Part shown: positions 9,391 through 24,707 of the stretch, piece by piece
Layout: the number at the start of each line of letters is the position of its first letter
Position numbering within the stretch: position 1 is the stretch's first letter
Assembly: GCA_052437885.1 (NCBI GenBank)
Contig: JBQVPB010000011.1
Coordinates: forward strand, 13,793 to 45,792
Origin: Methylophilus sp.
GTDB lineage: Bacteria > Pseudomonadota > Gammaproteobacteria > Burkholderiales > Methylophilaceae
Length of the DNA: 32,000 bases
Reading direction: 5' to 3'
The notes under the pieces: generated by a model
The model's database searches: none
Seen by the model: only the letters and a program-made list of their open reading frames with translations
What the model was told of the DNA's origin: nothing
Translations under genes and position numbers: made by a program

Positions 9391-9404
9391 TGCCAGCTTG
9401 CATT

Positions 9405-9804: not shown

Positions 9805-9829
9805 AAACCCGCTTATATGCGGGTTTTTT
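9805..9829 (+). terminator. rho-independent terminator of ssrA
   Basis: Stem CCCGC / GCGGG (9808-9812 / 9819-9823), loop TTATAT, T6 (9824-9829). Confidence 0.7.
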
Positions 9830-9845
9830 GTTATTCAAGCAGGTA

Positions 9846-10259: not shown

Positions 10260-10496
10260 ATGATTTCCCTTTTTTTATAAATGTAATATTCATAAATTAG
10301 ATTTATAAATATAAATAAACTATTTAAATCAATTGGTTATACAATAATATTCATGTGTTACCACTCTATCAGTCATCCGACATTTCTACCAATAAAAATG
10401 TTGGAAAATTGCGTGCAGGAAATTTTTTGCAAACTAAATGCGTTATAAATCTGTCACAAAAGGGAAACCAAGCAACCTGATAGCCTTTGAAATAAC

Positions 10497-11420
10497 ATGA
10501 CCATTACGCATACCACTGAAACCAAACTCATCCAGGACGTAGAAAATTTACGCATTCAATTCCCGCAGGCAAAAGACCTATACAGAGAAGTCTGTCGTGT
10601 GATGTTCTTTCGATACGGCATTCAGCCAACAGCAAACAAGCTTTACCAGCTGGTGCGTAAAGGCACCATGACGATACCGGCGCAGGCGGTCAGTAATTTC
10701 TGGTCCGAACTCAGACTTAAAAACCGGGTAGATATCGAGCAATCTGGCTTGCCAGACAGCTTGCGCGAATTTGCAGGCGAAGCCCTCAGTACCTTATGGA
10801 AATCTGCGCTGGAAGTCGCCAGACAAAATGTGAAAGAAAAACAGTCTGCCACCAATGTCCTTGAAAATGCTTACAGGCTTGAGCTGGAAAGTTGCAAGGC
10901 TCAACTCCGTAAACTTGAAACTGTGAATGCAGAGCAGTCTTCGGAACTGATGACGCTGAGAAAGCAGTTGCAGGAGAGCGACAAAAGATTCCTCATTGAT
11001 CATCAGGTATCAGCCACCCACAAAGAATCCGTCAAAACGCTGCAATACGAAAAATCGGCGCTGGAAGGGTCACTAAAGAGCATCAATAACGAGTTTGATA
11101 CCGAACTGAATAAACTGCATGCCGCCTTGAAGTTGTCAGAAGACCGCTTTAGAAAACTGGAGTCAAAATCATTTACCGATGTAGACAGAGAGAGACAGCG
11201 CACATACAAGCTGGAGTCTGAAATCGCGGAGTTGAAAAAAACCATACTCAAAGAACATGCAGTCAACAAAACCCAGTCAGCCAAAAATCAAAAGCTGGTG
11301 AATGAGCTGCGGGAAAATGTCGGCCTGATCAAAGGTCAGTTAAAAGAATCACAACGCCAGCAACTGGTAGCGTCTAACAAGTTAAAGCAGATAGAGAGAA
11401 AAAAGCCATTGTTGAAATGA
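10497..11420 (+). CDS. KfrA_N-like DNA-binding protein with a long coiled-coil
   Basis: 307 aa. The N-terminus (PTANKLYQLVRKGTMTIPAQAVSNFWSELR) resembles the KfrA N-terminal DNA-binding domain pattern. The remaining ~200 aa are heptad-rich, charged coiled-coil (LRKLETVNAEQSSELMTLRKQLQESDKRF...). Confidence 0.5.
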   Translation: MTITHTTETKLIQDVENLRIQFPQAKDLYREVCRVMFFRYGIQPTANKLYQLVRKGTMTIPAQAVSNFWSELRLKNRVDIEQSGLPDSLREFAGEALSTLWKSALEVARQNVKEKQSATNVLENAYRLELESCKAQLRKLETVNAEQSSELMTLRKQLQESDKRFLIDHQVSATHKESVKTLQYEKSALEGSLKSINNEFDTELNKLHAALKLSEDRFRKLESKSFTDVDRERQRTYKLESEIAELKKTILKEHAVNKTQSAKNQKLVNELRENVGLIKGQLKESQRQQLVASNKLKQIERKKPLLK

Positions 11421-11448
11421 AAAACTCTGGGCCCAAGTCTAACCATCT

Positions 11449-11760
11449 TTAATTTCGCATAATGTATAGCAAGTCGTAAATAACGGGGTTTGATGCCAGT
11501 ATTACAGCCCCTGAGAGCATGGCTGTCACTGCCATCAGTGACATTTTTGCATATCCACCTTGCATTAATTCCAAGGCCCTTCTAGCTTCTACATCTCCAA
11601 GAATCATAAGTTTTAATACTGTCTCACCGTCTGGTTTAGACAATCCCTGTTTCCAATTAGAAACCGTTCCTCTCGTTTTTCCTAAAGCCTGAGCTAGCTT
11701 GTAATCGCTCTCAATGTTTTTGTTCTTCTTAACTTCTTCTACTAAGTCATAGCCTGACAT
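11449..11760 (-). CDS. phage A HTH (Cro/CI-type) regulator with a hydrophobic C-terminal segment
   Basis: 103 aa. HTH is DYKLAQALGKTRGTVSNWKQGLSKPDGETVLKL. C-terminal hydrophobic stretch is MSLMAVTAMLSGAVILASNPVIY. AAGGAG lies 7 nt upstream of the ATG. Divergent from the structural operon. Homolog of 22723-23028. Confidence 0.7.
   Translation of the reverse strand: MSGYDLVEEVKKNKNIESDYKLAQALGKTRGTVSNWKQGLSKPDGETVLKLMILGDVEARRALELMQGGYAKMSLMAVTAMLSGAVILASNPVIYDLLYIMRN
11452..11479 (+). other. hybrid dif-like site (attL of prophage A): consensus XerC arm plus central region plus degenerate XerD arm
   Basis: ATTTCGCATAA-TGTATA-GCAAGTCGTAA compared with E. coli dif GGTGCGCATAA-TGTATA-TTATGTTAAAT. 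The left arm and spacer match; the right arm does not. Confidence 0.7.
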
Positions 11761-11812
11761 ACGTCACTCCTTACTTATTAATTAATGGATGCATTTTATT
11801 AGTATCTATCTA

Positions 11813-11860
11813 TTGACACAACGTCCCTAAATAAATACTATGTCCCTAAATTCATACTAT
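11813..11860 (+). promoter_or_regulatory. candidate early promoter of phage A with a tandem 19-bp operator-like repeat
   Basis: TTGACA (11813-11818), 17 nt, TACTAT (11836-11841). Repeat copies are GTCCCTAAATAAATACTAT (11823-11841) and GTCCCTAAATTCATACTAT (11842-11860), 17/19 identical and directly abutting. Confidence 0.45.
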
Positions 11861-11925
11861 GTAGACAACGAACCTGCCCCCGTTGTTCTGCAAATTCAAT
11901 TAGGGGCTATATAAGGGAATCAAAA

Positions 11926-12207
11926 ATGCAAATGAACCTACAAGTCCTTTCCATAGGCGCAATCGAATCAGGCACTAGTCAAGCAACCCGCAGACCATGG
12001 CACCGCCGCACATTCCAATGCTTTGATTTAGATGATCAGATAGTCGGTTCTATTACCCTGTACGCGCCAGAAGACGAATTAAAGGCTTATACGCAAAACG
12101 GCAAATATGTAGCGACTGTTACTAAGTCACAGGGCGATGGCGGCACGTTTGAGTTTCGCATCACTGCATTGCAGTTGATGACTGCACCACAAAAGGCTGC
12201 AGCTTAG
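11926..12207 (+). CDS. small phage protein, possibly the ssDNA-binding (gpV-like) protein
   Basis: 93 aa. First gene of the rightward operon. Homolog of 22290-22553 (shared QVLSIG..ESG.SQ....WHRRTFQ, GKY.A.V). The function is assigned only from size and position, so the call is tentative. Confidence 0.5.
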   Translation: MQMNLQVLSIGAIESGTSQATRRPWHRRTFQCFDLDDQIVGSITLYAPEDELKAYTQNGKYVATVTKSQGDGGTFEFRITALQLMTAPQKAAA

Positions 12208-12214
12208 AGATAAC

Positions 12215-12249
12215 AAAAAAGCCAACTGACTCGAATCAATTGGCTTTTT
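12215..12249 (+). terminator. conserved hairpin (attenuator or terminator) between the small gene and rep
   Basis: A6, then GCCAACTGA / TCAATTGGC (9-bp stem with one mismatch), loop CTCGAA, then T5. Almost the same sequence occurs in phage B at 22247-22280. Confidence 0.45.
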
Positions 12250-12279
12250 CTAATTTTAACGACTCGGAATCGCTAAAAC

Positions 12280-13239
12280 ATGGAACTAAGTATAGACCAA
12301 AGTTTTGACCATATCAATGATGCAGCGCTAGATGTTAGAGGCAATACAGGCATTGAAAAACCCTTTGAATACAGATTAAAAACACGAACATTTTTAAATA
12401 ATACGGTTGAGTTTGTCATGTCACGCATAAAGCATCGAATACCGAAGCTCCACAGCGACCCTATCTACGGGGAAATGACCTCATACACCAAAACCCTAAC
12501 CGATGAAGAAAGGGCGGCAAAAGATGCAGAAAACCTCAGTCGCGCAGTCAGGCGTGCAAAACAGGCTGTTTACTTCTCTGTCATGCAAATATCAGCAGAT
12601 CATCTGCTTACCCTTACAACTCGTGAAAACATCCAAGACCGTGAAAAATTCTTTACGGTTTTTACTAAATTTATCCGGCTCGTTAGAACCAAGATCCTTG
12701 TGGACGGCCGCCTTGTATCGACCCCGCGTCGCCCGTTCCATTACGTTGCTGTACCTGAGCTCCAAGACCGTGGTGCATATCATATGCACTGTGCAGTTGC
12801 TGGCTTTCAGGACGTTAAGCTGCTTCGTGCTTGTTGGTATGTTGCGCTTGGTGGCTCTGTTGGTGATTCTTCCGATACTGCGCTTGGTGCTATTAATGTC
12901 AGGTACAAACAAAGGCGGCTCGGTGGTCAATCAGAAACCTTTAAAACCTTTCAACTTGTCGGTTACCTCACGAAATACATTGATAAGGATTTCGCGGCAG
13001 ATAAGGCACTTCGCCTACACCGCTACCGTAAATCAAAAGACGTTCCTAAGCCAATCGAGTTCGACCAAGTCCTCATGGCCTGTAACTACCATGGAAACGA
13101 TTTTCTTGACGCGATCATTGAGGTTAACAGTATTGCCGCCTTTGTCACAGGGCAAAACACTGCAGGCATGATTCAGTGGAACAGGGGGCAAGATGTATAT
13201 GTATTACGTTCGGTCTTTCATGAAGAGCTGGAAGACTAA
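12280..13239 (+). CDS. rolling-circle replication initiator (HUH endonuclease, gpII-like)
   Basis: 319 aa. HUH motif is RGAYHMHCAV. Candidate catalytic Tyr region is LVGYLTKYIDKDF. Homolog of 21269-22216. Confidence 0.8.
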   Translation: MELSIDQSFDHINDAALDVRGNTGIEKPFEYRLKTRTFLNNTVEFVMSRIKHRIPKLHSDPIYGEMTSYTKTLTDEERAAKDAENLSRAVRRAKQAVYFSVMQISADHLLTLTTRENIQDREKFFTVFTKFIRLVRTKILVDGRLVSTPRRPFHYVAVPELQDRGAYHMHCAVAGFQDVKLLRACWYVALGGSVGDSSDTALGAINVRYKQRRLGGQSETFKTFQLVGYLTKYIDKDFAADKALRLHRYRKSKDVPKPIEFDQVLMACNYHGNDFLDAIIEVNSIAAFVTGQNTAGMIQWNRGQDVYVLRSVFHEELED

Positions 13240-13309
13240 AGCAACAGAATTTGCCTTTCTGGCAAGTGTGGTCGCAGTCACTTTACTGCGTTTTTATTGA
13301 GGATGAATC

Positions 13310-13501
13310 ATGAAATTGATTAACAAAGTAGTAGCAGGTGTAACTGGTCTCTTGGTCGTTGGTCTTGCACATGCAGAAGTTCCGGCAACAGTTACCGCCG
13401 CCTTCTCAGAAGCAAATACCGATATCGCTACCGTAGCATGGGGCCTGGCTGTTGTAGCCTTCATTGGTACAACAATCCGCATCATTCGTAACCGCGCATA
13501 A
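13310..13501 (+). CDS. major coat protein (gpVIII-like)
   Basis: 63 aa. Signal peptide MKLINKVVAGVTGLLVVGLAHA, acidic N-terminal region, hydrophobic core WGLAVVAFIGTTI, and a basic C-terminus RIIRNRA. This is the canonical inovirus coat layout. Confidence 0.7.
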   Translation: MKLINKVVAGVTGLLVVGLAHAEVPATVTAAFSEANTDIATVAWGLAVVAFIGTTIRIIRNRA

Positions 13502-13511
13502 TGCAAGGGTA

Positions 13512-13538
13512 GGGCGGCATAAAAAAGTCGCCCTTTTT
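13512..13538 (+). terminator. candidate terminator or attenuator after the coat gene
   Basis: GGGCG / CGCCC stem (13512-13516 / 13529-13533) followed by T5 (13534-13538). The loop is long at 12 nt. Confidence 0.35.
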
Positions 13539-13540
13539 CC

Positions 13541-13876
13541 ATGGGATTCCAATTAAAAGATATTTGTTACCCTGATCAACAAACTGCAGTTGATGCGTTT
13601 TTCTTGTCACAGCAAATGCACCTACAGTCAACACCTGACGATACGAGTATTTTCTATTTTCAGAAGTACCAGAACCAGTGGTCTATATGTAGGCAAAACA
13701 CAAACACGAACACTCCCTCAACGTGTTCAACCATAGAAAACCCCGTTCTCTCAGAGTGCGTATACGCAAGTGACCCTGTATCAAATTTCATGACTGGTTT
13801 AGAGCTGGGTGGCTATGTGGCCGCTGTTATTGCAATCGCAGCAATTGGCAAAGTCATCAGAGAAAAGGCTATATAA
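13541..13876 (+). CDS. phage A protein with a C-terminal TM anchor (minor virion or assembly protein)
   Basis: 111 aa. MGFQLKDICYPDQQTAVDAF... aligns with MGYQLKDVCYSTETMAQDAY... of 20609-20941. C-terminal helix is LGGYVAAVIAIAAIG. Confidence 0.55.
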   Translation: MGFQLKDICYPDQQTAVDAFFLSQQMHLQSTPDDTSIFYFQKYQNQWSICRQNTNTNTPSTCSTIENPVLSECVYASDPVSNFMTGLELGGYVAAVIAIAAIGKVIREKAI

Positions 13877-13950
13877 ATGAGCGAATTAGGCAACCTCTAT
13901 ATGTGGGCAGGTTTTCTTTGTGCAGTCTTACCGGCATACGTCCTAGCATC

Positions 13951-15309
13951 ATGAATCCATCGAATAGTTTTTATGAGTGGTGCGTGGGCGCTACCCACTG
14001 GATATGCGGACGCGGACCGCTCATTATGTTACTCCTCCTGCTGACCCCAGTAATCTCTAATTCAGCAGAGGAATACGCAAAACCACGATTCTACTTATCA
14101 AACTTTGCTGACATTTATTACGATACACAAGAAGCTGCTTGTTCTGCAGGTGCACCCCGTCAAGTAGCCAATAGCGGTACTCTAACAAGTGCTATCGTTG
14201 CTTATTCCAACGGAAACCGCAACATGCTAGGAACCTGCTGGATTAAGTCCACGCCATTTAATCAGGTAGGCACCTCTGTTTCAAACCTCAATGTACTAGC
14301 GCAACATAGCTGCCCTGCAGGCTATACACTTGGCCCAGCTAACCAAACAAACATCTACCAGCGCCTCTGCACAATTGCAAGTTGCCCATCAGGCACCACG
14401 CTAAATACGGCCACAAATAAATGCGATGACAACTGCTTACCCATTAAAGGCCAGCTAGCTTCTTTTGGCTTGAACTGTTCCTCAGAAACCTCCCAAGCTA
14501 TGCCAGTATGTATGCCTAATAATTGCGCGGCTAACGTTATAGATACAGCAAGTGTAAGGCTCGGAAACTGTTGGTATGGTTCAAATACAGCTAGATACAC
14601 CGGCGAACGTTGTAATGGTCAACGGTCGTCAAGTTCATTCTCAAACCCCTCAAACGAAAATCCGCCGCCAGCAGACAAGCCTGAAACAGACTGCATCAAA
14701 CAGGGGAAAAGTTTTGGCTATGTGAACGGTGTACCAGTATGCGTGCCTAAAGGTTCTGCAAGCGCAACACCTATTACACAAACAAACCAAAACACCACTA
14801 CAACTACAAACACCGATTCAGGCGGCAACACCACATCGAGCACAACAACAGAAACGAAAAATGCGACACAAGAAGGCGACCAAGTTACAAGCCAGATAAT
14901 AAAAACAAACCCTGACGGCACAAAAACCGAAGAAACAAAGACAGAGCCTGTCTATCAATTTTGCGCAACAAACCCCACTCACCCGATATGCAAGAAACCT
15001 GCAAGCGAGGAGGAGGAGGGTGTAGACCCCTGTGAGGACAGGCCAGACTTACCACAGTGTTATGACAGGGGTGAACCCACCGATACAGACACAATATCCA
15101 GTGTAAATAAGTCTTTCTCTTTTGCACCCCTTGCCATGGCATCAAGCGCAGGTTGCCCAGCAGACCGTGTATTTGTTCTTTCTGGCCGCTCATTTACAGT
15201 TCCTTTCGACAGGTTCTGCACGCTGGTCGCCTCTCTCAAACCTTTGATACTGGCATTTGCATACATGACTGCTGCCGGCATCATGTTTAATGGATGGAAA
15301 AATTCATGA
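13951..15309 (+). CDS. adsorption / minor coat protein (gpIII-like), Cys-rich with a Thr/Asn-rich linker
   Basis: The track ORF starts at GTG 13903. ATG 13951 or ATG 14026 (MLLLLLTPVISNSA/EEY) are more likely starts, so the start is ambiguous. There are many Cys, a linker TQTNQNTTTTTNTDSGGNTTSSTTTETKN, and a C-terminal TM helix LILAFAYMTAAGIMF. Position before pVI/pI. Homolog of 19237-20535. Confidence 0.6.
   Translation: MNPSNSFYEWCVGATHWICGRGPLIMLLLLLTPVISNSAEEYAKPRFYLSNFADIYYDTQEAACSAGAPRQVANSGTLTSAIVAYSNGNRNMLGTCWIKSTPFNQVGTSVSNLNVLAQHSCPAGYTLGPANQTNIYQRLCTIASCPSGTTLNTATNKCDDNCLPIKGQLASFGLNCSSETSQAMPVCMPNNCAANVIDTASVRLGNCWYGSNTARYTGERCNGQRSSSSFSNPSNENPPPADKPETDCIKQGKSFGYVNGVPVCVPKGSASATPITQTNQNTTTTTNTDSGGNTTSSTTTETKNATQEGDQVTSQIIKTNPDGTKTEETKTEPVYQFCATNPTHPICKKPASEEEEGVDPCEDRPDLPQCYDRGEPTDTDTISSVNKSFSFAPLAMASSAGCPADRVFVLSGRSFTVPFDRFCTLVASLKPLILAFAYMTAAGIMFNGWKNS
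14911..14963 (+). repeat. 53-bp block perfectly identical to the reverse complement of 19589-19641
   Basis: CCTGACGGCACAAAAACCGAAGAAACAAAGACAGAGCCTGTCTATCAATTTTG. Checked base by base against the reverse complement of 19589-19641. The flanking bases differ on both sides. Confidence 0.95.
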
Positions 15310-15575
15310 CTTGGTATACATGGGTTATTGCACTAGTCTCGCCTGTAGTAAAGAAGGTGCTTCTCGCCCTAGGTGTCGGAATAATCACATATACAGGCTT
15401 TGACTTGATGATCGGCCAGATACAGGGCTATATAAATAACCAAATGTCTGGCTTAGCTACAGAAGTCTTCCAGACCATTTCACTAATGGGCGTTCCTGAA
15501 TCCTTCGGCATCATCCTAGGTGCATACGCCTCTAGTGCAGCTTTGATGCAGGCTAAAAGGTTCGCACTACTATGA
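15306..15575 (+). CDS. gpVI-like minor coat / DUF2523-like membrane protein
   Basis: The track start is 15294. ATG 15306 aligns with the phage B homolog (MTWYTWVIALVSPVVKK versus MTWAAWVLALVAPIAKR) and gives an ATGA overlap with the pIII-like stop. There is also an ATGA overlap with the zot start (15572-15575). Confidence 0.6.
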   Translation: MTWYTWVIALVSPVVKKVLLALGVGIITYTGFDLMIGQIQGYINNQMSGLATEVFQTISLMGVPESFGIILGAYASSAALMQAKRFALL

Positions 15576-16801
15576 TCACTATAATTACTGGAACGCCTGG
15601 ACAAGGTAAGACAGCCTTATTAGTAAAAATGCTACTCGACAATGACAGGCTAATGGAATCTGCAAGACCAGTCTTTGCCTGTAACATTCCAGATCTCAAA
15701 ATCCCGCACGTCAAAGCGCCCCCTGTAAAAGAGTGGACTGTATTAAAACCACTCGAACTAGAGCCAGAAAAAGACAGGGCTGAATACGCATTCCCGCCTA
15801 ATTCACTACTGATTGTTGACGAGGCTCAGCTATATTTTGAGGCACAGTCATCCGGCTCAAGGAAGCCACCCCACATCCAAGCCCTGCAGACACATCGTCA
15901 TACCGGCCTTGATATAATCCTCATTAGCCAAAAACCCATGCTCATGCATGCAGATGTTCGTGCACTCTGCGGCCGCCACATACACTTAAGGAAGTCTTTC
16001 CTGCAGAGAAAACTTTACGAATGGCCGGAGTACTCAGATGTAAACAGTAAGGCGGCACTAAAAGAAGCCATCAGGAGGCCATACAAACCACCTAGAGAGG
16101 CCTTCAAATACTACACATCATCACAGCTACACACGAAGCAACAAGCCAGAACTAACCCCTTAATATTCGCGCTGCCTCTCTTAGCAATAATGCTTGCAGG
16201 CCTTTCCTACCGTTATTACACGACGCATCCACAATTATTCAATAAAGAGGCAAAAAATGAAGTTGGCCAAAACCTCAAAGTGGTCGAGAAGGGCGCGGAA
16301 ACTAATAATGCAGGACAGGCTCTTTCACAAGCTATACAGCACAGTCTCCCCATCGGGGTACACCCTAACCCAGATGCACCGGAAACCACTCAGGACGTAC
16401 ACGGTGATCCGGCCTTCAATGTCTCGAATGAGGTACACCCTTATTCTGGATTTACGTTTGTTCTCGTTGGCGTGGTGAAGTCAAAAGCAAACGAGCTTAG
16501 TTATTACAGGCTTTCAAATGGTGAGTATGGATTCACAGCAACCAGCACTGATCTAAAAGAACTAGGCTACTCCATCAAGGTAGCAAACAGGTGCACAGCA
16601 TACTTGGTGTACGAGAAGGCCAAGATAGTAGCTATTTGCGGCCTCCCAGAAGCCCCTAAAGCGCCTCAAACTGCCCGCAGTGACACAGAAGACCCAAAGG
16701 GGGATATTAGGGGGCGACAGCCCCTTGATGCAGACAGTATCGATATAACTCCGAAGAGCTGGGAAACTTATCATGCACCGTCGCCCCTTACGAAGTACTA
16801 G
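15572..16801 (+). CDS. Zot-family assembly ATPase (gpI-like)
   Basis: 409 aa. Walker A is ITGTPGQGKT and Walker B is LLIVDEAQ. A central TM helix LIFALPLLAIMLAGL precedes a C-terminal periplasmic domain. Homolog of 17781-18974. Confidence 0.9.
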   Translation: MITIITGTPGQGKTALLVKMLLDNDRLMESARPVFACNIPDLKIPHVKAPPVKEWTVLKPLELEPEKDRAEYAFPPNSLLIVDEAQLYFEAQSSGSRKPPHIQALQTHRHTGLDIILISQKPMLMHADVRALCGRHIHLRKSFLQRKLYEWPEYSDVNSKAALKEAIRRPYKPPREAFKYYTSSQLHTKQQARTNPLIFALPLLAIMLAGLSYRYYTTHPQLFNKEAKNEVGQNLKVVEKGAETNNAGQALSQAIQHSLPIGVHPNPDAPETTQDVHGDPAFNVSNEVHPYSGFTFVLVGVVKSKANELSYYRLSNGEYGFTATSTDLKELGYSIKVANRCTAYLVYEKAKIVAICGLPEAPKAPQTARSDTEDPKGDIRGRQPLDADSIDITPKSWETYHAPSPLTKY

Positions 16802-16820
16802 GCCCCCTGCTAAACAAATA

Positions 16821-16844
16821 AAAGCCACTTATGTGGCTTTTTTT
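16821..16844 (+). terminator. rho-independent terminator after zot (phage A)
   Basis: AAAGCCAC / GTGGCTTT stem (16821-16828 / 16833-16840), loop TTAT, T-run to 16844. Confidence 0.65.
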
Positions 16845-16900
16845 ACACCTTCGCTTAACTGCAGGAACACTACAATTCTTAACAATTGCTGCAAATTACA

Positions 16901-16963
16901 CGCGCCGCTAGGCGCGCCGTACTAAATTTATATTACGGACGTTTTACAACAGAATAATAAAAA
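16901..16963 (+). promoter_or_regulatory. phage A intergenic element: GC hairpin plus a highly conserved 42-nt block (candidate origin or packaging signal)
   Basis: Hairpin CGCGCC-GCTA-GGCGCG (16901-16916). The block at 16922-16963 is 40/42 identical to the reverse complement of 17580-17621, far above the surrounding similarity. Confidence 0.4.
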
Positions 16964-16966
16964 AGC

Positions 16967-17248
16967 ATGGGTTTTGATCAATCAAAATATATTGAGTTGC
17001 CGAAATGGTCGGACGAGTTGCGGCATCTGTATTGGATGATTAGATTTGAACGCCGGAATGTAGCGACGCGTAGAAGGTATTACAGGAAGGTAGAACGCGA
17101 GAAATTGCGTTTAGCTGAACTTGGTATCAATCAAACAAAAATAGCGGCTGTATGCCGCTATTTATCAAACTTCAAGAATGCAGAAACTTTAAGCCGGATA
17201 TTGGCCGAGATTGAGGCCCAAATGACGATAGATTTTAGAACGGTATGA
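16967..17248 (+). CDS. conserved small basic phage protein of unknown function (att-proximal)
   Basis: 93 aa. Alignable over most of its length with 17290-17577 (SKY.ELP.WS..LRHLYW.IR...YYRKVE.EKLRLAE.GI.Q.KIAAVCRYL.NFKNA.TL). No family recognised. Confidence 0.6.
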   Translation: MGFDQSKYIELPKWSDELRHLYWMIRFERRNVATRRRYYRKVEREKLRLAELGINQTKIAAVCRYLSNFKNAETLSRILAEIEAQMTIDFRTV

Positions 17249-17272
17249 AGGCCTCTTATTCTCTGACCTCCT

Positions 17273-17300
17273 ATTTCGTATAATGTATATTATGTTAAAT
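17273..17300 (+). other. dif: complete dif-like XerC/XerD recombination site at the junction of the two prophages
   Basis: ATTTCGTATAA-TGTATA-TTATGTTAAAT. The central region and XerD arm are identical to E. coli dif (GGTGCGCATAA-TGTATA-TTATGTTAAAT). The XerC arm matches at 7 of 11 positions. Confidence 0.8.
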
Positions 17301-17577
17301 CGCAGAAGAAAGCTAAGGCCAACTGATAATCTGGTTCTGCCAGCGTCTTTCGCAATGTACTAGCGTTTTTGAAGTTACAAAGATAGCGGCAAACAGCCGC
17401 TATTTTTATTTGTGCTATCCCAGCTTCGGCCAACCGCAATTTCTCTTTCTCGACCTTCCTGTAATACTTCCTACGTTTCGACTCGATACGTCCTTCTACT
17501 CGAATAATCCAATACAGGTGCCGGAGACTTTCCGACCAGTCTGGAAGCTCTACATATTTGCTGCCGTCAAATGCCAT
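17290..17577 (-). CDS. conserved small basic phage protein of unknown function (att-proximal), phage B
   Basis: The track ORF starts at GTG 17631. The ATG at 17577-17575 (MAFDGSKYVELP) aligns with the start of the phage A homolog (MGFDQSKYIELP). The last codons and the stop lie inside the XerD arm of the dif site. Confidence 0.6.
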   Translation of the reverse strand: MAFDGSKYVELPDWSESLRHLYWIIRVEGRIESKRRKYYRKVEKEKLRLAEAGIAQIKIAAVCRYLCNFKNASTLRKTLAEPDYQLALAFFCDLT

Positions 17578-17579
17578 GG

Positions 17580-17639
17580 TTTTTATTGTTCTGTTGTAAA
17601 ACGTCCGTAATATAAATCTAGTGGCGGCCACAGCCGCCA
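17580..17639 (-). promoter_or_regulatory. phage B intergenic element: conserved 42-nt block plus a GC hairpin
   Basis: 17580-17621 is the counterpart of 16922-16963 (40/42). Hairpin TGGCGGC-CACA-GCCGCCA at 17622-17639 occupies the same relative position as the phage A hairpin but has an unrelated stem sequence. Confidence 0.4.
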
Positions 17640-17741
17640 GACGTTGCGCCCAGCCGTCCGCGGTGCCCGCTGCCAGCTTGTCGCACTAGGAAACGACAGA
17701 ATGTTAATTAGTGTAATCATTGGTTTAAGATAAAGAGTTGT

Positions 17742-17766
17742 AAAAAAAGCACCTAAAAGGTGCTTT
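17742..17766 (-). terminator. rho-independent terminator after zot (phage B)
   Basis: AGCACCT / AGGTGCT stem with loop AAA. A7 on the + strand gives T7 on the - strand. Confidence 0.6.
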
Positions 17767-17780
17767 GTTCGGCAAGGGGG

Positions 17781-18974
17781 TCAGTACTTTGTAGCTGGCG
17801 ACGGTGCGTGATACGTATCCCAGCTTCTCGAATCCAGATTGATGTTGTCTGCATCAGGGGGCTGTCGCCCCCTAATATCCCCCAAGGTATCCTTGGCCTT
17901 AGCTTCGATGGTTTGGGGCTTTTGTGGGTCCTGTGGCAGGGCGCAGATAGCTACTATCTTGGCCTTTTCGTATATCAGATATGAGGTGCAGTTGTTTGCT
18001 ACCTTAACCGAGTAGCCCAGCTCTTGCAGCTCATCACTTGTGGCCGTGAATCCATACTCACCATTGAAAAGCCTATAGTAGCTAATTTCCTTTCTAGCGC
18101 CCTTCACTGACCCCACCAGAACGAAAGTAAAGCCAGAGTATGGATGAATGTCATTTGAGACGTTAAAAGCTGGGTCTGGTCCTGAGTACTCTTGCGCCCC
18201 CGGGGATTCGTGCAATTCACCATCGATTAGATCCCGACGAGGTTTTTTTGAATCTGTGCCGGCTTTGCTGGGTGCGCTGGAAGCCGCTTCCTGTATAGGT
18301 TTATCACTCATGCGGCCAGAAATACTTGTAAAAGCTCGATAGCCCATATAACCCATAAAAACGACAGCTAGAGCAAGATATATCCAGACCTGATGAAAGC
18401 GCCGAGGTTGCTTTGTATGCATCTCGCTGGACTTGTAGTATTTGAAGGATTCTTTAGGCGGTTTAAATGCCCTCTTCGCCGCTGCATCTAAGTTTGCCTT
18501 ATTGTCCGTGTCGTTATATTCCGGCCATTCGTAAAGCTTGCGGCCGAGGATAGTATCTCTGATGTGGATATGGCGGCCGCAGAGGTGACGAACATTGACG
18601 TCTACAAGGTTAGGCTTTTGCGTAAGCAGGATTATATCTAAGCCCGTATGGCGGTGCGTTTCAAGTGCAGCAACGTATGGCGGTACTTTGGTTCCTGCAG
18701 AGCGTGGGCGGTAGACCCTCTGAGCTTCATCCAGTATCAGGTATGAGTTAGGAGGAAAGGTAAAGTAATCAAGCATTAATGACGGGTCATCAGGGTCTGG
18801 CCGCTTCTCTGTCCACTCTTCTACAGGTGGCGCCTTTACATGCTCGATTCTTAAGTCAGGTATGCCCATAACAAAAACAGGCCTCGCATTTGAGGCCTTG
18901 TCGTTTGCTAGGAGCATTTGAACGAGTAACGCAGTTTTGCCCATGCCAGGCACGCCAGTGATTATTGTAATCAT
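17781..18974 (-). CDS. Zot-family assembly ATPase (gpI-like), phage B
   Basis: 397 aa. ITGVPGMGKT (Walker A), LILDEAQ (Walker B), TM helix VWIYLALAVVFMGYMGY. The C-terminal domain is shared with phage A (DPAFNVSN..HPYSGFTFVLVG, YEKAKIVAIC, GDIRGRQP). Confidence 0.9.
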   Translation of the reverse strand: MITIITGVPGMGKTALLVQMLLANDKASNARPVFVMGIPDLRIEHVKAPPVEEWTEKRPDPDDPSLMLDYFTFPPNSYLILDEAQRVYRPRSAGTKVPPYVAALETHRHTGLDIILLTQKPNLVDVNVRHLCGRHIHIRDTILGRKLYEWPEYNDTDNKANLDAAAKRAFKPPKESFKYYKSSEMHTKQPRRFHQVWIYLALAVVFMGYMGYRAFTSISGRMSDKPIQEAASSAPSKAGTDSKKPRRDLIDGELHESPGAQEYSGPDPAFNVSNDIHPYSGFTFVLVGSVKGARKEISYYRLFNGEYGFTATSDELQELGYSVKVANNCTSYLIYEKAKIVAICALPQDPQKPQTIEAKAKDTLGDIRGRQPPDADNINLDSRSWDTYHAPSPATKY

Positions 18975-19240
18975 AGGATACCCAGCCTTTTAACGACCAT
19001 GAGAGAAGCCGCAGAGGTAATGCCGCCAAGCATTATTCCTATCGATTCAGGAATACCCATCATTGTGGCTATACCGAGTATGTCAGATGTAGTGCCACCA
19101 ATCGATTGATTAATCATTGTGGTTAACTGACCTATTGCCATATCGAAGCCAGTAACCGTAATAATGCCTATGCCTAGTGCGACCATAACCCTTTTTGCGA
19201 TTGGTGCGACTAGTGCGAGAACCCAAGCAGCCCAAGTCAT
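18971..19240 (-). CDS. gpVI-like minor coat / DUF2523-like membrane protein, phage B
   Basis: 89 aa. ATGA overlaps with both neighbours. Homolog of 15306-15575. Confidence 0.6.
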   Translation of the reverse strand: MTWAAWVLALVAPIAKRVMVALGIGIITVTGFDMAIGQLTTMINQSIGGTTSDILGIATMMGIPESIGIMLGGITSAASLMVVKRLGIL

Positions 19241-20535
19241 GAATTAGCCCCTCTCAAACCCATAAATAAGAACATGGCCGCAGACAGATAAGCGAATGCA
19301 AGCATGAACGGTTTAAACATGGATGCGTAATTACAAAGCCATGTATAACTGAATGTGATTGACTTGCCAGCTATAGATACTGACTTGTCGGCAGGGCATG
19401 AACCGCCTGAGGTAATGGTTACAGGTGAAAAGTTGATTGTTCGTGCGTCTGTAGTGAGATTATCGCCCTCCTCAGCTTCACCAACCTTCATGCATCTAGG
19501 CAGGTCTGGGTTGTCCTCGCAGGAATCTTCGCCCTCCTCATCCTCACTGGCAGGTTTCTTACATATCGGGTGCGTAGGGTTTGATGCACAAAATTGATAG
19601 ACAGGCTCTGTCTTTGTTTCTTCGGTTTTTGTGCCGTCAGGATTCGTTTTTATAGTCTGGCTTGTTACTTGATCGCCATCCTGTGTGGCGTTCTTTGTTT
19701 CAGTGGAGGTATTAGAAGTACTGTTTCCGGCTGAATCTGTGTTAGTCGTCGTTGTGGTACTTTGGTTTGTTTGGGTAACGGGCGCAGCACTAGCTGAGCC
19801 TTTAGGTACGCAAACTGGAACACCGTTTACATAACCGAAACTTTGCCCTTTTCGTACGCAATCAGTTTCTGGCTTATCGGTAGGGTCTGGGGCGTTTGTA
19901 GGGTTTGAAAAGGAAGCCGCAGAAGGTTGTCCGCTACAACCCTCTCCCGAATATCTGGCTGTATTAATACCATAATAACAACTGGTGACAAATACGCTTG
20001 TAGTGTCAACGATGACGGCCGCACAGTTATTTGGCATACAAACGCCCTGACCTGATGAAGTTCCAGCTGAGCAATTCAAACCGAAAGAGCCCATCTTGCC
20101 TTTCATTGGTAGGCAGTTGTCCTCGCATTGGTTTGTAGCTGTATTCAGCGTGGTGCCAGTGGGGCAAGCTGCTATTGTGCATGTGCGCTGATAGATGTTT
20201 GTTTGGTTTGCTGCACCAAGTAGATAACCAGCCGGGCAAGAATGCTGGGCTAATACATTCAGGTTTGAAACGGAGGTGCCTGTCGAATTGTATGGGGTAG
20301 ACTTAATCCAACATGTACCTAGCAGATTGCGTCCACCGGGGTATGAAACAATCGCACTAATTAATGTTCCATTGTTTGCAACCTGTCGAGGTGCACCAGA
20401 TGAACATGCAGCTTCCTGAGTATCGTAAAAGTTATCAGGAAAGCCTGACAGGTAAAAACGAGGCTTAGCGTATTCCTGAGCTGAGAAACAGGAGCTAGAA
20501 ACCAATAAGAGGAAAAGAAGAGATAGCAGCTTCAT
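19237..20535 (-). CDS. adsorption / minor coat protein (gpIII-like), phage B
   Basis: The track ORF starts at 20583. The ATG at 20535 gives a clean signal peptide MKLLSLLFLLLVSSSCFSA/QEY. It has the same Cys pattern, Thr/Asn linker and C-terminal TM helix as phage A. Confidence 0.65.
   Translation of the reverse strand: MKLLSLLFLLLVSSSCFSAQEYAKPRFYLSGFPDNFYDTQEAACSSGAPRQVANNGTLISAIVSYPGGRNLLGTCWIKSTPYNSTGTSVSNLNVLAQHSCPAGYLLGAANQTNIYQRTCTIAACPTGTTLNTATNQCEDNCLPMKGKMGSFGLNCSAGTSSGQGVCMPNNCAAVIVDTTSVFVTSCYYGINTARYSGEGCSGQPSAASFSNPTNAPDPTDKPETDCVRKGQSFGYVNGVPVCVPKGSASAAPVTQTNQSTTTTTNTDSAGNSTSNTSTETKNATQDGDQVTSQTIKTNPDGTKTEETKTEPVYQFCASNPTHPICKKPASEDEEGEDSCEDNPDLPRCMKVGEAEEGDNLTTDARTINFSPVTITSGGSCPADKSVSIAGKSITFSYTWLCNYASMFKPFMLAFAYLSAAMFLFMGLRGANS
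19589..19641 (-). repeat. 53-bp block, perfect inverted copy of 14911-14963
   Basis: The reverse complement equals 14911-14963 exactly. Lies inside the gpIII-like gene. Confidence 0.95.
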
Positions 20536-20608
20536 TTTGTGAGAGTGATAACAGGTAAAACCACAATAAGGAAGCCAGCCCAAAGATAAATGTTTGCAAG
20601 TTCATCCA

Positions 20609-20941
20609 TTAGAACCTCACTCTTAAAAAGCGCCACAGAAAAGCCACTATGATCGCGCCAGCTACAGCAGCACCGAGTTCAGTACCAGCTATAAATTGGG
20701 CGGTTGGGTCGCTATGGTCTGTACATGTTGAAAACGCCGGAAAGTTGATGTCAGGGCATTGAGTAAGGCCACCAGTAGACAAACTGTGAGCGCCCATGCA
20801 CCAAGCACCAGAGACTTTTTCAGGGTAGAAAAAAACGCTTGTTGAATCGTTAACAACGAATGCAGGCTGCATAGATTGTGCATATGCATCTTGTGCCATA
20901 GTCTCAGTTGAATAACAAACATCTTTTAGTTGATAACCCAT
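20609..20941 (-). CDS. phage B protein with a C-terminal TM anchor (minor virion or assembly protein)
   Basis: The ATG at 20941 (MGYQLKDVCY) aligns with the phage A homolog start. C-terminal helix is LGAAVAGAIIVAFLW. Confidence 0.55.
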   Translation of the reverse strand: MGYQLKDVCYSTETMAQDAYAQSMQPAFVVNDSTSVFFYPEKVSGAWCMGAHSLSTGGLTQCPDINFPAFSTCTDHSDPTAQFIAGTELGAAVAGAIIVAFLWRFLRVRF

Positions 20942-21001
20942 GATTTTGTCCAAAAAATGGCGAGGTGATGAACCCCGCCAAACTCGAAGGAAGCAAGCTT
21001 A

Positions 21002-21193
21002 TTAACCAGCCTTGCGCTTCAACCAGAACAGAACACCAACGGTTACAGCCATGCCCAAAAACAGGCCACCAAGTGTTACACCGTCAGCTTCGGCAGTTGC
21101 AATCGCGTCAGCTACACCAGCTGGCAGAGCAGCCATTGCAGAAGTTGCCAGACCAGTTAAACCCAAACCTAATGCATAAGAGATACGTTTCAT
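21002..21193 (-). CDS. major coat protein (gpVIII-like), phage B
   Basis: 63 aa. Signal peptide MKRISYALGLGLTGLATSAMA, an acidic segment, hydrophobic core LGGLFLGMAVTVGVLFW, and a basic tail LKRKAG. Confidence 0.7.
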   Translation of the reverse strand: MKRISYALGLGLTGLATSAMAALPAGVADAIATAEADGVTLGGLFLGMAVTVGVLFWLKRKAG

Positions 21194-21268
21194 GATTACA
21201 CCCTTTAAAAAAATCGACAGTAGACGACTGTCAGCGTAGTGGCCAGAAAGGCCAATTCGATAATTCGG

Positions 21269-22216
21269 TTAATCCACATAAGCAGAACGGAGGATGTAAA
21301 TATCCTCCCCCCTATTCCAGGGAATCATTTGTGTAGGATGTTGCCCTGTGACAAATTGGGCTATTTGTGACACCTCGATTAGGGCGTCAATGAAGTCTTT
21401 ACCGCCTGCATTACAGGCCATAAGCACTTGGTTAAACTCGATAGGTTTAGGAATATCACGCGCTTTTAGATAGCGGTGTTGCCCCAACTCCGAAGTGTGT
21501 GCGAAGTCCTTATCAATGTATTTTGTAAGGTAACGAACAAGGGAAAAAGTCTTATGTGTTTCTGATTGATTACCCCAGCGTTTCTGGCGGTATTGCACAT
21601 CAACTTGACCAAGCGCAGTATCGCCAGCATCAGAGATATTGCCACCCAGCGCGACATACCAACAGGCACGTAGGAAACGAATGTCCTGACGACCAACCAC
21701 AGCGCAGTGAAGATGATATGCACCACGGTCCTGTAGTTCAGGGACAGCCACGTAAGCATAGGATTTACGCGGTACTGTAATGAGGCGACCATTGACCAGA
21801 ATCTTTGTGCGGACAAGTCTAATAAAGCGCTGGAAAATTTCGAAGTATTTAGCGCGCTCTGTAATGTTTTCACGGGTCGTGAGTGTGAGCAGATGATCAG
21901 CGCCGATTTGACGGATTGCATAGTGAACAGATTTTTTTGCACGTCTTACCGCCCTTTCTAAGTTTTCTGCATCTTTAGCAGCCTTCTCTTCATCTGTCAG
22001 TGTGCGAGCGTACGTAGTTAACTCGCCGTATGTCGGCTCTTGAGTTAGCTTTGGAATTGTATGCTTAATGCGCGTCATGATGAAGTCGATAGTGTTATTT
22101 GCAAAGGTCACAGTCTTAAGTTTGTATTCGTGTACGCTTTCAATGCTTCTATGGTTCTTTGGGTCAAGGTAGTCATCGTTGACAACTGAATCAAAGGTAT
22201 TTAAAGTTAAGTCCAT
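21269..22216 (-). CDS. rolling-circle replication initiator (HUH endonuclease, gpII-like), phage B
   Basis: 315 aa. RGAYHLHCAV (HUH) and LVRYLTKYIDKDF. Long identical runs with phage A Rep (DHLLTLTTRENI, FIRLVRTKILV, YVAVPELQDRGAYH, LRACWYVALGG). Confidence 0.8.
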   Translation of the reverse strand: MDLTLNTFDSVVNDDYLDPKNHRSIESVHEYKLKTVTFANNTIDFIMTRIKHTIPKLTQEPTYGELTTYARTLTDEEKAAKDAENLERAVRRAKKSVHYAIRQIGADHLLTLTTRENITERAKYFEIFQRFIRLVRTKILVNGRLITVPRKSYAYVAVPELQDRGAYHLHCAVVGRQDIRFLRACWYVALGGNISDAGDTALGQVDVQYRQKRWGNQSETHKTFSLVRYLTKYIDKDFAHTSELGQHRYLKARDIPKPIEFNQVLMACNAGGKDFIDALIEVSQIAQFVTGQHPTQMIPWNRGEDIYILRSAYVD

Positions 22217-22246
22217 GTTTAAGCCATTCCGAGTGGTTTAAATTAG

Positions 22247-22280
22247 AAAAAGCCAATTGATTACAGTCAGTTGGCTTTTT
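22247..22280 (-). terminator. conserved hairpin between the small gene and rep, phage B
   Basis: Counterpart of 12215-12249. It is the AGCCAA...TTGGCT stem flanked by A and T runs. Confidence 0.45.
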
Positions 22281-22289
22281 CGTTGTCTA

Positions 22290-22553
22290 TCACGCTGGTT
22301 TTACTGGTAAGAGGTCAACAATAGACGGTACTAAGCGCCCGTTATCCCCTGCCCTGTTACGAACCACGGCTGTATATTTGCCGCCTTCTTTGTACGAATT
22401 CAATTTGTCCAAATCGCCGTAAACAGGGATATTGCCTGCTACTTTGGCTTCTATGTCATAAACTTGGAATGTGCGGCGGTGCCACTCTGTACCGCGCTGG
22501 GATTTGCCGGATTCTGTTTCGCCGATAGATAAAACTTGAATTTGAATTGACAT
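22290..22553 (-). CDS. small phage protein, possibly ssDNA-binding (gpV-like), phage B
   Basis: 87 aa. Homolog of 11926-12207. The function is tentative. Confidence 0.5.
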   Translation of the reverse strand: MSIQIQVLSIGETESGKSQRGTEWHRRTFQVYDIEAKVAGNIPVYGDLDKLNSYKEGGKYTAVVRNRAGDNGRLVPSIVDLLPVKPA

Positions 22554-22622
22554 GATTTAAGCCCTTATATAGCCCCTTGTGTGTGTAAATCGGAACTATG
22601 GGGGCAGGTTCATAGTCCGTGT

Positions 22623-22666
22623 TAAAGTTAGGACGTATGTTAATCCTAAGTTTATGACGTTGTCAA
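22623..22666 (-). promoter_or_regulatory. candidate early promoter of phage B with two operator-like repeats
   Basis: On the minus strand: TTGACA (22666-22661), 18 nt, TAACAT. Repeats ACGTCATAAACTTA (22660-22647) and ACGTCCTAACTTTA (22636-22623) match at 11 of 14 positions. Confidence 0.35.
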
Positions 22667-22722
22667 TACTTTAGAACGGTATAAAATACTGACTATTGAA
22701 ATAAAGCTGATAGGAGCTATAA

Positions 22723-23028
22723 ATGGCCGGATACGGACTGATTGAAGCAATCAAAGAAAATACAGATTTGAAAAGCGATTATGCGATCGCAAAGGAAATC
22801 GGCGTAGGCAGGCAGAATATAAGCACCTGGAAGAACACGGGAACGATGCCAGACGCGATAACGGTATTGAAGTTAGCAGAACTAGCCAAGCTGACACCAT
22901 CACAAGCCCTAGCGAAGCTGCAAGGCGGCTATGCAAGTGTGTCACTGATGGTAGTGACAGCAACCCTTTCTATCGCCCTGCTTTCAAGCCATTTCCCAGC
23001 TAACCCACTGTATATTATGTTAAATTAA
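22723..23028 (+). CDS. phage B HTH (Cro/CI-type) regulator with a hydrophobic C-terminal segment
   Basis: 101 aa. HTH is DYAIAKEIGVGRQNISTWKNTGTMPDAITVLKL. Hydrophobic stretch is VSLMVVTATLSIALLSS. TAGGAG lies upstream of the ATG. The 3' end overlaps the hybrid dif site. Confidence 0.7.
   Translation: MAGYGLIEAIKENTDLKSDYAIAKEIGVGRQNISTWKNTGTMPDAITVLKLAELAKLTPSQALAKLQGGYASVSLMVVTATLSIALLSSHFPANPLYIMLN
22998..23025 (+). other. hybrid dif-like site (outer att of prophage B): degenerate XerC arm plus central region plus perfect XerD arm
   Basis: AGCTAACCCAC-TGTATA-TTATGTTAAAT. The 17 nt TGTATATTATGTTAAAT are identical to 17284-17300. Confidence 0.7.
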
Positions 23029-23118
23029 AGATATGCGGCAATTCAGTGCCATAAACGCATTCCCCCTGTTGTGATTTGAGTTACTATCTGGACACATCCA
23101 TGCCACAAGGTGCTTAAG

Positions 23119-23511
23119 ATGAAAAATGTTTATGTTTGCATTGCCAGTTTGTTTATTGCAGCATGCACTACGCATCACAGTCACACCGTTGCACATCCGC
23201 AAGCCCCGTCCACTGTCACAAACCCTGTGCAGATCACCGGTAAAGTTGATCAGGCACTTAGGAGTGGGATCTTGGGAAAAAGCGTGACCAGCACTGTGTT
23301 CATTTATTTTGACGAGGTGCTGCATATCACCGGCAAACTGGATCGTACTGGCTTTGGCGAGCTGCCGGGGATCAGTTATCAGGACAAGCGGGTTTCCAGC
23401 ACTTGTAACTCCAGGCCTACCGGCCCTAAAACTGCCGAGTTAAGCTGTATGGTATTTATTGACAGTAAACCTGCGACCACCCTGGTCATGGAAACCAAGC
23501 GCAACAGATAG
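23119..23511 (+). CDS. hypothetical lipoprotein
   Basis: The track ORF starts at GTG 23110. ATG 23119 gives MKNVYVCIASLFIAAC with a lipobox-like FIAAC. No family recognised. Confidence 0.55.
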   Translation: MKNVYVCIASLFIAACTTHHSHTVAHPQAPSTVTNPVQITGKVDQALRSGILGKSVTSTVFIYFDEVLHITGKLDRTGFGELPGISYQDKRVSSTCNSRPTGPKTAELSCMVFIDSKPATTLVMETKRNR

Positions 23512-23565
23512 CGCCGATATCAGCGCCCTATTTTTCATTGTTCGCTTTTATAGAGGCAGTCATGC

Positions 23566-24642: not shown

Positions 24643-24707
24643 GGTTTCAACCCTCTCGCCAGCATTTTTTTATGCGCAGATCTGCTTTAAAGTGGAATTC
24701 TGGTGTT

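Follow-up and report, generated by a model that had tools for sequence, protein, structure and literature searches.

How do two filamentous prophages that carry no integrase come to lie face to face around a single intact chromosomal dif site? The question is raised by a 32,000-nucleotide (nt) stretch of a Methylophilus sp. contig (JBQVPB010000011.1; hereafter the window), which holds two complete inovirus genomes in mirrored arrangement: P1 on the + strand (about 11469-17289) and P2 on the - strand (about 17290-23008). An earlier reading based on the letters of this DNA without database searches (the sequence-only reading) had proposed that two integrase-less inoviruses sit in opposite orientation at the chromosomal dif with a complete dif between them, and comparative evidence now supports this directly. 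We consider it highly probable that P1 and P2 are heteroimmune members of a single inovirus family, that both are integrative mobile elements exploiting Xer recombination (IMEXs) at the Methylophilus chromosomal dif, and that they are mirrored through the polarity of their phage attachment sites (attP). The ingredients, namely this kind of IMEX and half-site attPs, are already known. The mirror pair, a polarity switch of roughly five substitutions and a module built around an uncharacterised terminal gene, here called orf93, together represent a new variant.

A complete dif between two half-sites

Three dif-related sites, all in the same + strand orientation, border the two prophages:

11452-11479, +, P1 attL: XerC arm and overlap exact over 17 nt, then a degenerate XerD-side arm
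17273-17300, +, middle site, complete dif: ATTTCGTATAA TGTATA TTATGTTAAAT
22998-23025, +, P2 attR: degenerate XerC-side arm, then overlap and XerD arm exact over 17 nt

The sequence-only reading had placed three dif-like boundaries at exactly these coordinates, but only the middle one is a complete dif, the outer two being half-sites. In attL, a chromosomal XerC arm (ATTTCGCATAA, 11452-11462) and the overlap TGTATA (11463-11468) are followed by the phage-derived GCAAGTCGTAA (11469-11479), which matches the XerD arm at 4/11 positions. Conversely, attR consists of the phage-derived AGCTAACCCAC (22998-23008; 4/11 match to the XerC arm), the overlap TGTATA (23009-23014) and a chromosomal XerD arm (TTATGTTAAAT, 23015-23025). 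We interpret these outer sites as hybrid attL and attR half-sites because such hybrids are what integration predicts. The middle site is the sole full dif of the three and differs by 1 mismatch from the 28-mer obtained by joining the left XerC arm, the overlap and the right XerD arm (0 expected by chance). Its XerC arm is the T variant ATTTCGTATAA, for which P1 is the only source, while its XerD arm could stem from P2 or from the chromosome, as the two sequences are identical. No further dif-like half-site (≤2-3 mismatches) was found anywhere else in the window.

If the two prophages entered a chromosomal dif, related genomes should carry this locus with a single site, and the sequence-only reading had suggested searching for such an allele. 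It was found in six metagenome contigs of a close Methylophilus relative (L019-L024), retrieved by exact-sequence look-ups of homologues of the lipoprotein encoded beside attR. In these contigs, the KfrA-like and lipoprotein genes are 161 nt apart with a single site, ATTTCGCATAATGTATATTATGTTAAAT, between them (KfrA ...CCTAACCATCTTTT ATTTCGCATAATGTATATTATGTTAAAT TGATGG... lipoprotein gene), and this site is exactly the composite 28-mer predicted from the window. Aligned to L019, the window matches over 9646-11468 (86%) and 23009-32000 (90%), the mutual overlap of these two segments being the 6-nt TGTATA, and the XerC arm of attL is identical to that of the empty-site dif (C variant). The same dif, located between the same genes, in the same orientation and adjoining the same lipoprotein/HD-GYP flank, is present in Methylophilus flavus (L018, with the XerC arm variant TATTCGCATAA) and in a 3.1-Mb contig of a Methylophilus metagenome-assembled genome (MAG; L017).

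Single-prophage states were found as well. The syntenic locus in L015/L016 and in L004 holds one P2-like prophage of the XerD-arm type, oriented as P2. Its repressor end, which faces the lipoprotein/HD-GYP flank, bears a half-site, and its orf93 tail a full dif. In L015 this full dif is exactly the ancestral 28-mer ATTTCGCATAATGTATATTATGTTAAAT, and the L004 prophage shares up to 86% DNA identity with P2. The circular GenBank genome MW202693 (L003), which has a different Rep backbone, carries an XerD-arm attP that is intact and lies between orf93 and the repressor gene, at the 3' ends of both, and the IMG/VR contig L008 shows the same XerD-arm arrangement with no second dif-like site.

The two prophages are clearly distinct from each other. 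The same gene string had been reported on the + strand (11449-17248) and mirrored on the - strand (17290-23028), and the open reading frame (ORF) listing agrees with Pfam and PHROG scans on this point. Amino acid identity between counterparts is 45.5% for the repressor, 43.7% for the ssb-like protein, 63.2% for Rep, 37.5% for the coat protein, 34.9% for the small transmembrane protein, 66.1% for pIII, 49.4% for pVI, 55.7% for Zot and 64.5% for orf93, and alignment at the DNA level is confined to blocks of 64-74% identity and a single 43-nt block at 86%. Hence P1 and P2, with 35-66% identity per gene pair, are two different phages and not an assembly duplication, as had been argued from the letters alone. 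Repressors that are 45% identical would fit different immunities.

Neither phage encodes an integrase or transposase of its own, and the claim that a secretin is missing too is borne out: Pfam, PHROG and NCBIfam scans detected none of these domains in any P1 or P2 ORF. Pfam searches likewise found no integrase or transposase in the ten left-flank ORFs at 323-10259 or in the KfrA-like ORF (10497-11420), nor in the right flank as judged by precomputed Pfam hits of contig L001, which is 100% identical to it.

Several side observations concern this dif locus. In M. flavus (L018), a P2-like tail has left a remnant of ~0.6 kb (8909-9550) between dif and the lipoprotein gene, made up of a piece of orf93 and upstream intergenic sequence, 75-77% identical to window positions 17401-17764, and the present XerD arm of that dif may be phage-derived. 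A cluster of CheX, a response regulator and a ~255-aa gene stands between dif and the KfrA-like gene in L015 (10438-12605), L018 (6596-8776) and L004 (7001-7498), and is absent from the window and from L019-L024. The chromosomal flanks here extend the composite dif palindrome (11445-11469 / 23008-23032, ATCTTTAAT ... ATTAAAGAT) and provide the TAA stops of both repressors; the empty-site relatives have TTTT / TGATGG instead. Finally, PM2-like double-jelly-roll (DJR) prophages (P2_N/P2_C capsid) occupy the same Methylophilus dif in two other contigs. One, in L017 (171-9726), lies on the XerC side with a DUF3653 gene by the full dif, and the other, in L014 (10277-20276), lies behind an orf93 homologue and an XerD-arm half-site. 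Both are consistent with lysogeny modules common to inoviruses and DJR phages outside Vibrio.

Mirrored attP polarity and prophage orientation

Reconstruction of the circular junctions predicts genomes of 5821 nt for P1 and 5725 nt for P2, with the same order in both: orf93, attP, then the 3' end of the convergent helix-turn-helix (HTH) repressor gene. Read from orf93 to repressor, the P1 attP is ATTTCGTATAA TGTATA GCAAGTCGTAA, i.e. a good XerC arm and a degenerate XerD arm, with a predicted context of ...CTGACCTCCT ATTTCGTATAA TGTATA GCAAGTCGTAAATAACGG... Read the same way, the P2 attP is ATTTAACATAA TATACA GTGGGTTAGCT, whose reverse complement presents a degenerate XerC arm, the overlap and a perfect XerD arm; on the + strand of the window its predicted junction is ...CCAGCTAACCCAC TGTATA TTATGTTAAAT CGCAGAAGAAAG... 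Both attPs occupy the same map position and have the dif overlap unchanged (6/6), with the good arm directly beside orf93 and the degenerate one within the repressor gene's 3' end. Because dif is quasi-palindromic, the good 17-mers of the two phages differ at only 5 positions (5 substitutions between P2 ATTTAACATAATATACA and ATTTCGTATAATGTATA). The opposite orientation of the prophages follows from these mirrored polarities, the good arm standing by orf93 in both. The inverted layout noted in the sequence-only reading is therefore real, but the polarity of attP had been missed as its cause, and no special capture event is needed.

The arrangement can be derived in a simple way if Xer recombination pairs like arm with like arm, the alignment of the sites being set by arm identity and overlap. 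P1 would insert on the XerC side of dif and rebuild dif at its own tail with its own XerC arm; the T variant would stand in the middle dif, and the C variant would be displaced to 11452, because P1 sits on the XerC side and donates its arm. P2 would enter from the XerD side, its genes facing the other way, and would likewise leave a rebuilt dif at its tail. Whichever phage came first, the same array would result: attL (XerC arm, overlap, degenerate XerD arm), P1, dif (XerC arm of P1, overlap, XerD arm), inverted P2, and attR (degenerate XerC arm, overlap, XerD arm). Integration would probably be reversible, because an identical overlap permits both strand exchanges. For P2-type prophages, the safeguard against excision may be the degenerate XerC arm, or it may be another one.

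Both repressor ORFs run through the attachment sites. The P1 repressor ends in ..LYIMRN, with overlap, chromosomal XerC arm and flank together supplying its last codons and stop, and the P2 repressor ends in ..LYIMLN within the chromosomal XerD arm and flank. In the excised circles, basic C-terminal extensions of 26 amino acids (P1) and 20 amino acids (P2) are predicted; integration therefore alters the repressor protein. A hydrophobic C-terminal segment is present in both repressors.

Recurrence of the layout and rival explanations

A survey of orf93 homologues covered 9 IMG/VR and 45 metagenome loci, with identical site strings collapsed and a strict rule applied for calling XerC arms. Among the 34 distinct site sequences that could be classified, the arm abutting orf93 was of the XerD type in 28 and of the XerC type in six (P1 of the window, L006, L056, L060, L064 and L068); no site was recognised for 14 hits. 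Two of these loci, L060 and L064, come from unrelated hosts with another dif sequence, and each contains two convergent orf93 genes around one full dif (ATTGCGTATAA TTTGTA TTATGTTAAAT in L064). In L064 the element to the right, on the XerC side, is a complete inovirus that encodes an RstA-like Rep, RstB, Zot and an HTH repressor. At its far end, within the 3' end of the repressor gene, an XerC arm and the overlap are followed by a degenerate XerD arm, as in P1. Together with the relatives described above, these pairs make the tail-to-tail layout a recurrent and predictable outcome. The capture of two phages at one dif, as first proposed from the window, thus stands, with the addition that the arrangement recurs.

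Two of the XerC-type loci gave further side observations. In L006, from a freshwater metagenome, a 1.57-kb mini element (1-1570) between XerC-arm half-sites lies beside an XerC-arm inovirus and encodes an HTH + DUF3653 (XafT-like) protein (794-1234, - strand); it looks like a TLC-like satellite IMEX. In L056 (36-2038), an orf93-like tail and an XerC-arm half-site are followed by a convergent inovirus with a DUF3653 terminal gene. In this different module the relation of gene orientation to attP polarity is reversed, and orientation is therefore a property of the module.

The mirrored layout could also have arisen from a direct tandem array in which one copy was later inverted by homologous or Xer-mediated recombination. 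Direct tandems are the commonly described IMEX arrays (PMC7307601; bioRxiv 10.64898/2026.06.12.731946), and P1 and P2 do share DNA blocks of ~70% identity. Inverting P2 would have inverted its sites as well, yet all three att sites point the same way. Moreover, the outer junction of P2 (degenerate XerC arm, overlap, XerD arm) is found with the same flank orientation in the single prophages of L004 and L015, the circular L003 and the L008 contig natively carry an XerD-arm attP, and convergent layouts exist independently in L060 and L064, all of which leaves a later inversion with a very slim chance. We see even less room for an assembly artefact, in which two contigs ending in prophages were mis-joined at a shared dif-like sequence. 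The junctions are seen in one assembly only, and the draft contig L001 of the same strain, 100% identical to the right flank, ends near the locus (assembly GCA_052437015.1 also matches the right flank at 100%). It ends, however, at 23204 and not at an att site, and the att sites share only 17 nt between phages that are ~70% identical, so that there is no long repeat at which to mis-join. The left and right flanks correspond to the two sides of a single empty locus in L019, the T and C arm variants fit a real double integration, and the pairs in L060 and L064 are independent cases.

A recombinase other than XerC/XerD, either a trans-acting integrase encoded elsewhere or an activity of Rep, might alternatively have carried out integration at dif. 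This would accommodate the degeneracy of one arm in each attP, and it draws on the facts that 32 kb of the genome were examined and that the role of Xer is read from sequence. A non-Xer recombinase is nevertheless disfavoured because the core of the att sites is the host dif itself, with arm and overlap exact over 17 nt. In addition, the crossover falls within the overlap and inner arm and a complete dif is regenerated, features that are hallmarks of characterised IMEXs (PMC4246890, PMC6744903), and no integrase was detected in the elements or in the scanned flanking ORFs of the window. We thus regard this route as improbable, if somewhat less so than the two preceding ones.

Several points weigh against integration of P1 and P2 as Xer-exploiting elements mirrored by attP polarity. 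Catalysis by XerC/XerD is presumed from sequence features, and XerC would have to act on an arm that matches the consensus at 4/11 positions. The circular forms of both phages and the activity of the middle dif are predictions. An exact search of IMG/VR with the P1 attP gave 0 hits, and the P1 and P2 junctions are visible in a single assembly, L001 stopping ~180 nt short of attR. Lastly, orf93 has no detectable similarity to the Xer activator XafT/DUF3653 (hhalign probability 0.3%).

The sequence-only reading had further taken the locus to mark the replication terminus. The dif site lies in the terminus region, and from that established location the locus would be expected to mark it. Within the window, GC skew is dominated by gene orientation: it changes sign at ~17 kb, tracking the mirrored coding strands, and is flat in the flanks. 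The FtsK-orienting polar sequence (KOPS) GGGNAGGG occurs 5 times in these 32 kb against 2.7 expected, a non-significant count reached by 16/100 shuffles, with three copies on the + strand of the left flank and none in the right flank. One copy per prophage points to the central dif (13507-13514, +; 22347-22354, -), a placement indistinguishable from chance.

Gene content, the orf93 module and known Xer-exploiting systems

Both prophages share the gene order divergent HTH repressor, ssb-like, HUH Rep, coat B, transmembrane protein, pIII-like, DUF2523/pVI-like, Zot and an orf93 of 93-95 amino acids (aa). A Rep, a single-stranded DNA (ssDNA)-binding protein, coat B, pIII- and pVI-like proteins and Zot/pI in canonical order within ~6 kb place both in the Inoviridae. 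Genes and conserved elements, with the evidence for each, are as follows:

11449-11760, -, P1 HTH repressor, 103 aa (Pfam HTH_3; PHROG transcriptional regulator)
11926-12207, +, P1 ssDNA-binding-like protein, 93 aa (PHROG 2866, E = 9e-8)
12280-13239, +, P1 rolling-circle Rep, 319 aa (Pfam REP_ORF2-G2P; PHROG 3419, E = 5e-51)
13310-13501, +, P1 major coat protein, 63 aa (Pfam Phage_Coat_B; PHROG 7106)
13541-13876, +, P1 small transmembrane protein, 111 aa (PHROG 12382)
13903-15309, +, P1 pIII-like adsorption protein, 468 aa (PHROG 4352; NCBIfam TspB C-terminal domain)
15294-15575, +, P1 pVI-like minor coat protein, DUF2523 (Pfam/PHROG scans)
15572-16801, +, P1 Zot/pI assembly ATPase, 409 aa (Pfam Zot; PHROG 197, E = 4e-58)
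16921-16963, +, conserved 43-nt non-coding element, P1 copy, immediately upstream of orf93
16967-17248, +, P1 orf93, terminal gene (PHROG 27692, function unknown)
17290-17577, -, P2 orf93 homologue, 95 aa from ATG (ORF listing, homology)
17580-17622, -, conserved 43-nt non-coding element, P2 copy, upstream of orf93
17781-18974, -, P2 Zot/pI, 397 aa (domain scan)
18971-19240, -, P2 pVI-like protein, DUF2523 (domain scan)
19237-20583, -, P2 pIII-like protein, 448 aa (66% identity to the P1 counterpart)
20609-20953, -, P2 small transmembrane protein, 114 aa (alignment to the P1 counterpart)
21002-21193, -, P2 major coat protein (Pfam Phage_Coat_B)
21269-22216, -, P2 Rep, 315 aa (Pfam REP_ORF2-G2P)
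22290-22553, -, P2 ssb-like protein, 87 aa (44% identity to the P1 counterpart)
22723-23028, +, P2 HTH repressor, 101 aa (domain scan)

The Phage_Coat_B match of the P1 coat protein (E = 8.2e-5, 23.0 bits) is slightly under the curated cut-off of 23.5 bits. The left flank carries the housekeeping genes rpsA, cmk, aroA and prephenate dehydrogenase together with the KfrA-like gene (10497-11420), for whose product an exact-sequence look-up gave no record. To the right lie genes for a lipoprotein, HD-GYP and response-regulator proteins, a CHASE3 histidine kinase and a PQQ dehydrogenase. Homologues of this lipoprotein bear the names Methylophilus sp. and Methylophilus flavus, which makes the host a Methylophilus. 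In GenBank, the nearest records to the two phages are Inoviridae sp. MW202882 and MW202693. The former (L002; circular, 5531 nt) is the nearest GenBank relative of P1, with a 66% identical Rep; it has kept orf93 and the 43-nt element, lacks a repressor and a dif-like site, and may be a non-integrating or deleted variant. A profile scan of genome contigs based on the Rep alignment, with patterns that proved too strict, returned one locus (L013, a Methylophilus MAG).

The terminal gene stands out by its link to attP. In close relatives the orf93 stop codon overlaps the good arm or lies within ~30 nt of it, and in P2 the last residues (..DLT) and the stop are encoded by the XerD arm itself. The gene accompanies the repressor and attP on three inovirus Rep backbones, and a homologue with an XerD-arm half-site directly precedes the DJR prophage of L014. 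Its product is a small basic protein, and the family is itself small, with 59 clusters when grouped at 90% identity and 178 representatives found at E ≤ 1e-3. The protein belongs to no Pfam or NCBIfam family, and a Pfam scan of 48 diverse members was empty. Foldseek searches of BFVD and PDB with its four-helix AlphaFold2 model (predicted local distance difference test, pLDDT, 78.5) gave no match at E ≤ 0.001, and the sole hint is a match to the MarR/MepR winged HTH (E = 0.02). From its position, orf93 may be a Xer accessory factor or a lysogeny regulator.

The 43-nt elements of P1 and P2 share 95% identity, with 95-100% conservation in L002, L004, L014, L015 and L031-L034, against ~65-75% for coding DNA. 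It is preceded by a GC hairpin and the Zot terminator, and an Rfam search of 11000-23500 gave no match; the element could be a promoter/operator, a packaging signal or a Xer accessory sequence. As a separate observation, a perfect hairpin with a 10-bp stem lies inside orf93 over the invariant IAAVCRY codons (17139-17163, +; P2 copy 17379-17407). Its ssDNA folding z-scores are -4.7 (P1), -3.0 (P2) and -4.2 (L015), and it is absent from the distant family members L008 and L064. This may reflect a dual coding and structural constraint, e.g. a packaging signal or minus-strand origin.

To our knowledge, nearly all work on IMEX biology has been done in Vibrio cholerae, where every element we know of has been described as rebuilding dif on the right-hand (XerD) side, so that arrays stack one way. 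Here, both polarities occur within one phage family about five substitutions apart, so that arrays of IMEXs are able to extend to either side of dif. The half of dif that an attP copies directly reveals the orientation of the prophage, and tools that delineate prophage borders should seek half-dif sites in either orientation and to the left as well as the right of dif. The XerD-arm form, the commoner one for the orf93 module, poses the questions of which recombinase starts the exchange and how FtsK-driven excision is avoided with two perfect XerD arms. The orf93 family is a candidate accessory factor. It is conceivable, and we advance this only tentatively as the less probable view, that this dominant form follows a route not yet described, in which XerD would act first on two perfect XerD arms and XerC on a non-consensus arm, and that it would persist without the safeguard of a degenerate XerD arm. 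On this view the orf93-attP-repressor unit would be a new portable Xer-hijacking module with a new kind of Xer accessory or activation factor serving either attP polarity. The finding adds methylotrophic Betaproteobacteria to the hosts of IMEX inoviruses and of DJR phages. The literature we searched contained no polarity switch within one lysogeny module, no mirror pair around dif and no orf93 family.

Among known systems, P1 resembles TLCphi of V. cholerae in the anatomy of its site and in rebuilding dif on the XerD side of the element. TLCphi lacks an integrase and has an attP with a good XerC arm, a poorly binding XerD arm and an overlap allowing full crossover, next to which a small accessory gene is located (PMC6744903, PMC9226527, bioRxiv 10.64898/2026.06.12.731946). 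P1 has this canonical XerC arm and non-canonical XerD arm (4/11), whereas P2 is its mirror image, with a good XerD arm and a degenerate XerC arm. TLCphi is also a satellite, while P1 and P2 are complete inoviruses. An XafT-like DUF3653 gene by attP, a defining feature of TLC-type elements, was not found: P1 and P2 gave no DUF3653 hit, and the same tools detected the domain in L006, L017 and L056. How DUF3653 genes are positioned and oriented relative to dif varies by subclass (PMC6744903).

VGJphi and CTXphi share with P1 and P2 the lack of an integrase, residence at dif, an HTH repressor, Zot and the formation of arrays. The overlaps of the VGJ and CTX attPs allow exchange by XerC only, whereas those of P1 and P2 are 6/6 identical to dif; with this TGTATA overlap and one degenerate arm, a VGJ-type assignment was rejected. 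The CTX attP is a folded ssDNA hairpin of two inverted sites, unlike the one double-stranded site of P1 and P2, and a CTX-type assignment was likewise rejected, as there is no second inverted site in the window and L003 and L008 have a single site each. In V. cholerae arrays a new dif invariably arises to the right; with P2 and with most elements linked to orf93 it arises on the opposite side.

Half-site attPs of either arm are also known from Vibrio PM2-like DJR phages, for which 17-bp left- or right-armed dif-like attPs and a repressor-XafT-attP module shared with CTX-I inoviruses have been described (PMC12715192, 2025). In what was read of it, the word "orientation" is absent from the main text and no mirror pairs around dif were found. 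The half-sites of both polarities and the orf93 homologue by the DJR prophage of L014 parallel this system. The Vibrio module uses XafT/P15, whereas the terminal gene here belongs to an unrelated family and the host is a betaproteobacterial methylotroph. In XacF1 of Xanthomonas citri, a different phage family, attP lies inside the coding region of a putative regulator that is split on integration at dif (PMC5666396, abstract); the run of both repressor ORFs through att here is similar (cf. ORF12). Finally, the gonococcal genetic island (GGI) is, like P1 and P2, held between a complete dif and a defective dif-like site. In GGI and TLC elements it is the XerD arm that is defective, which is believed to keep FtsK from driving excision (PMC6744903), whereas P2-type prophages carry perfect XerD arms on both flanking sites.

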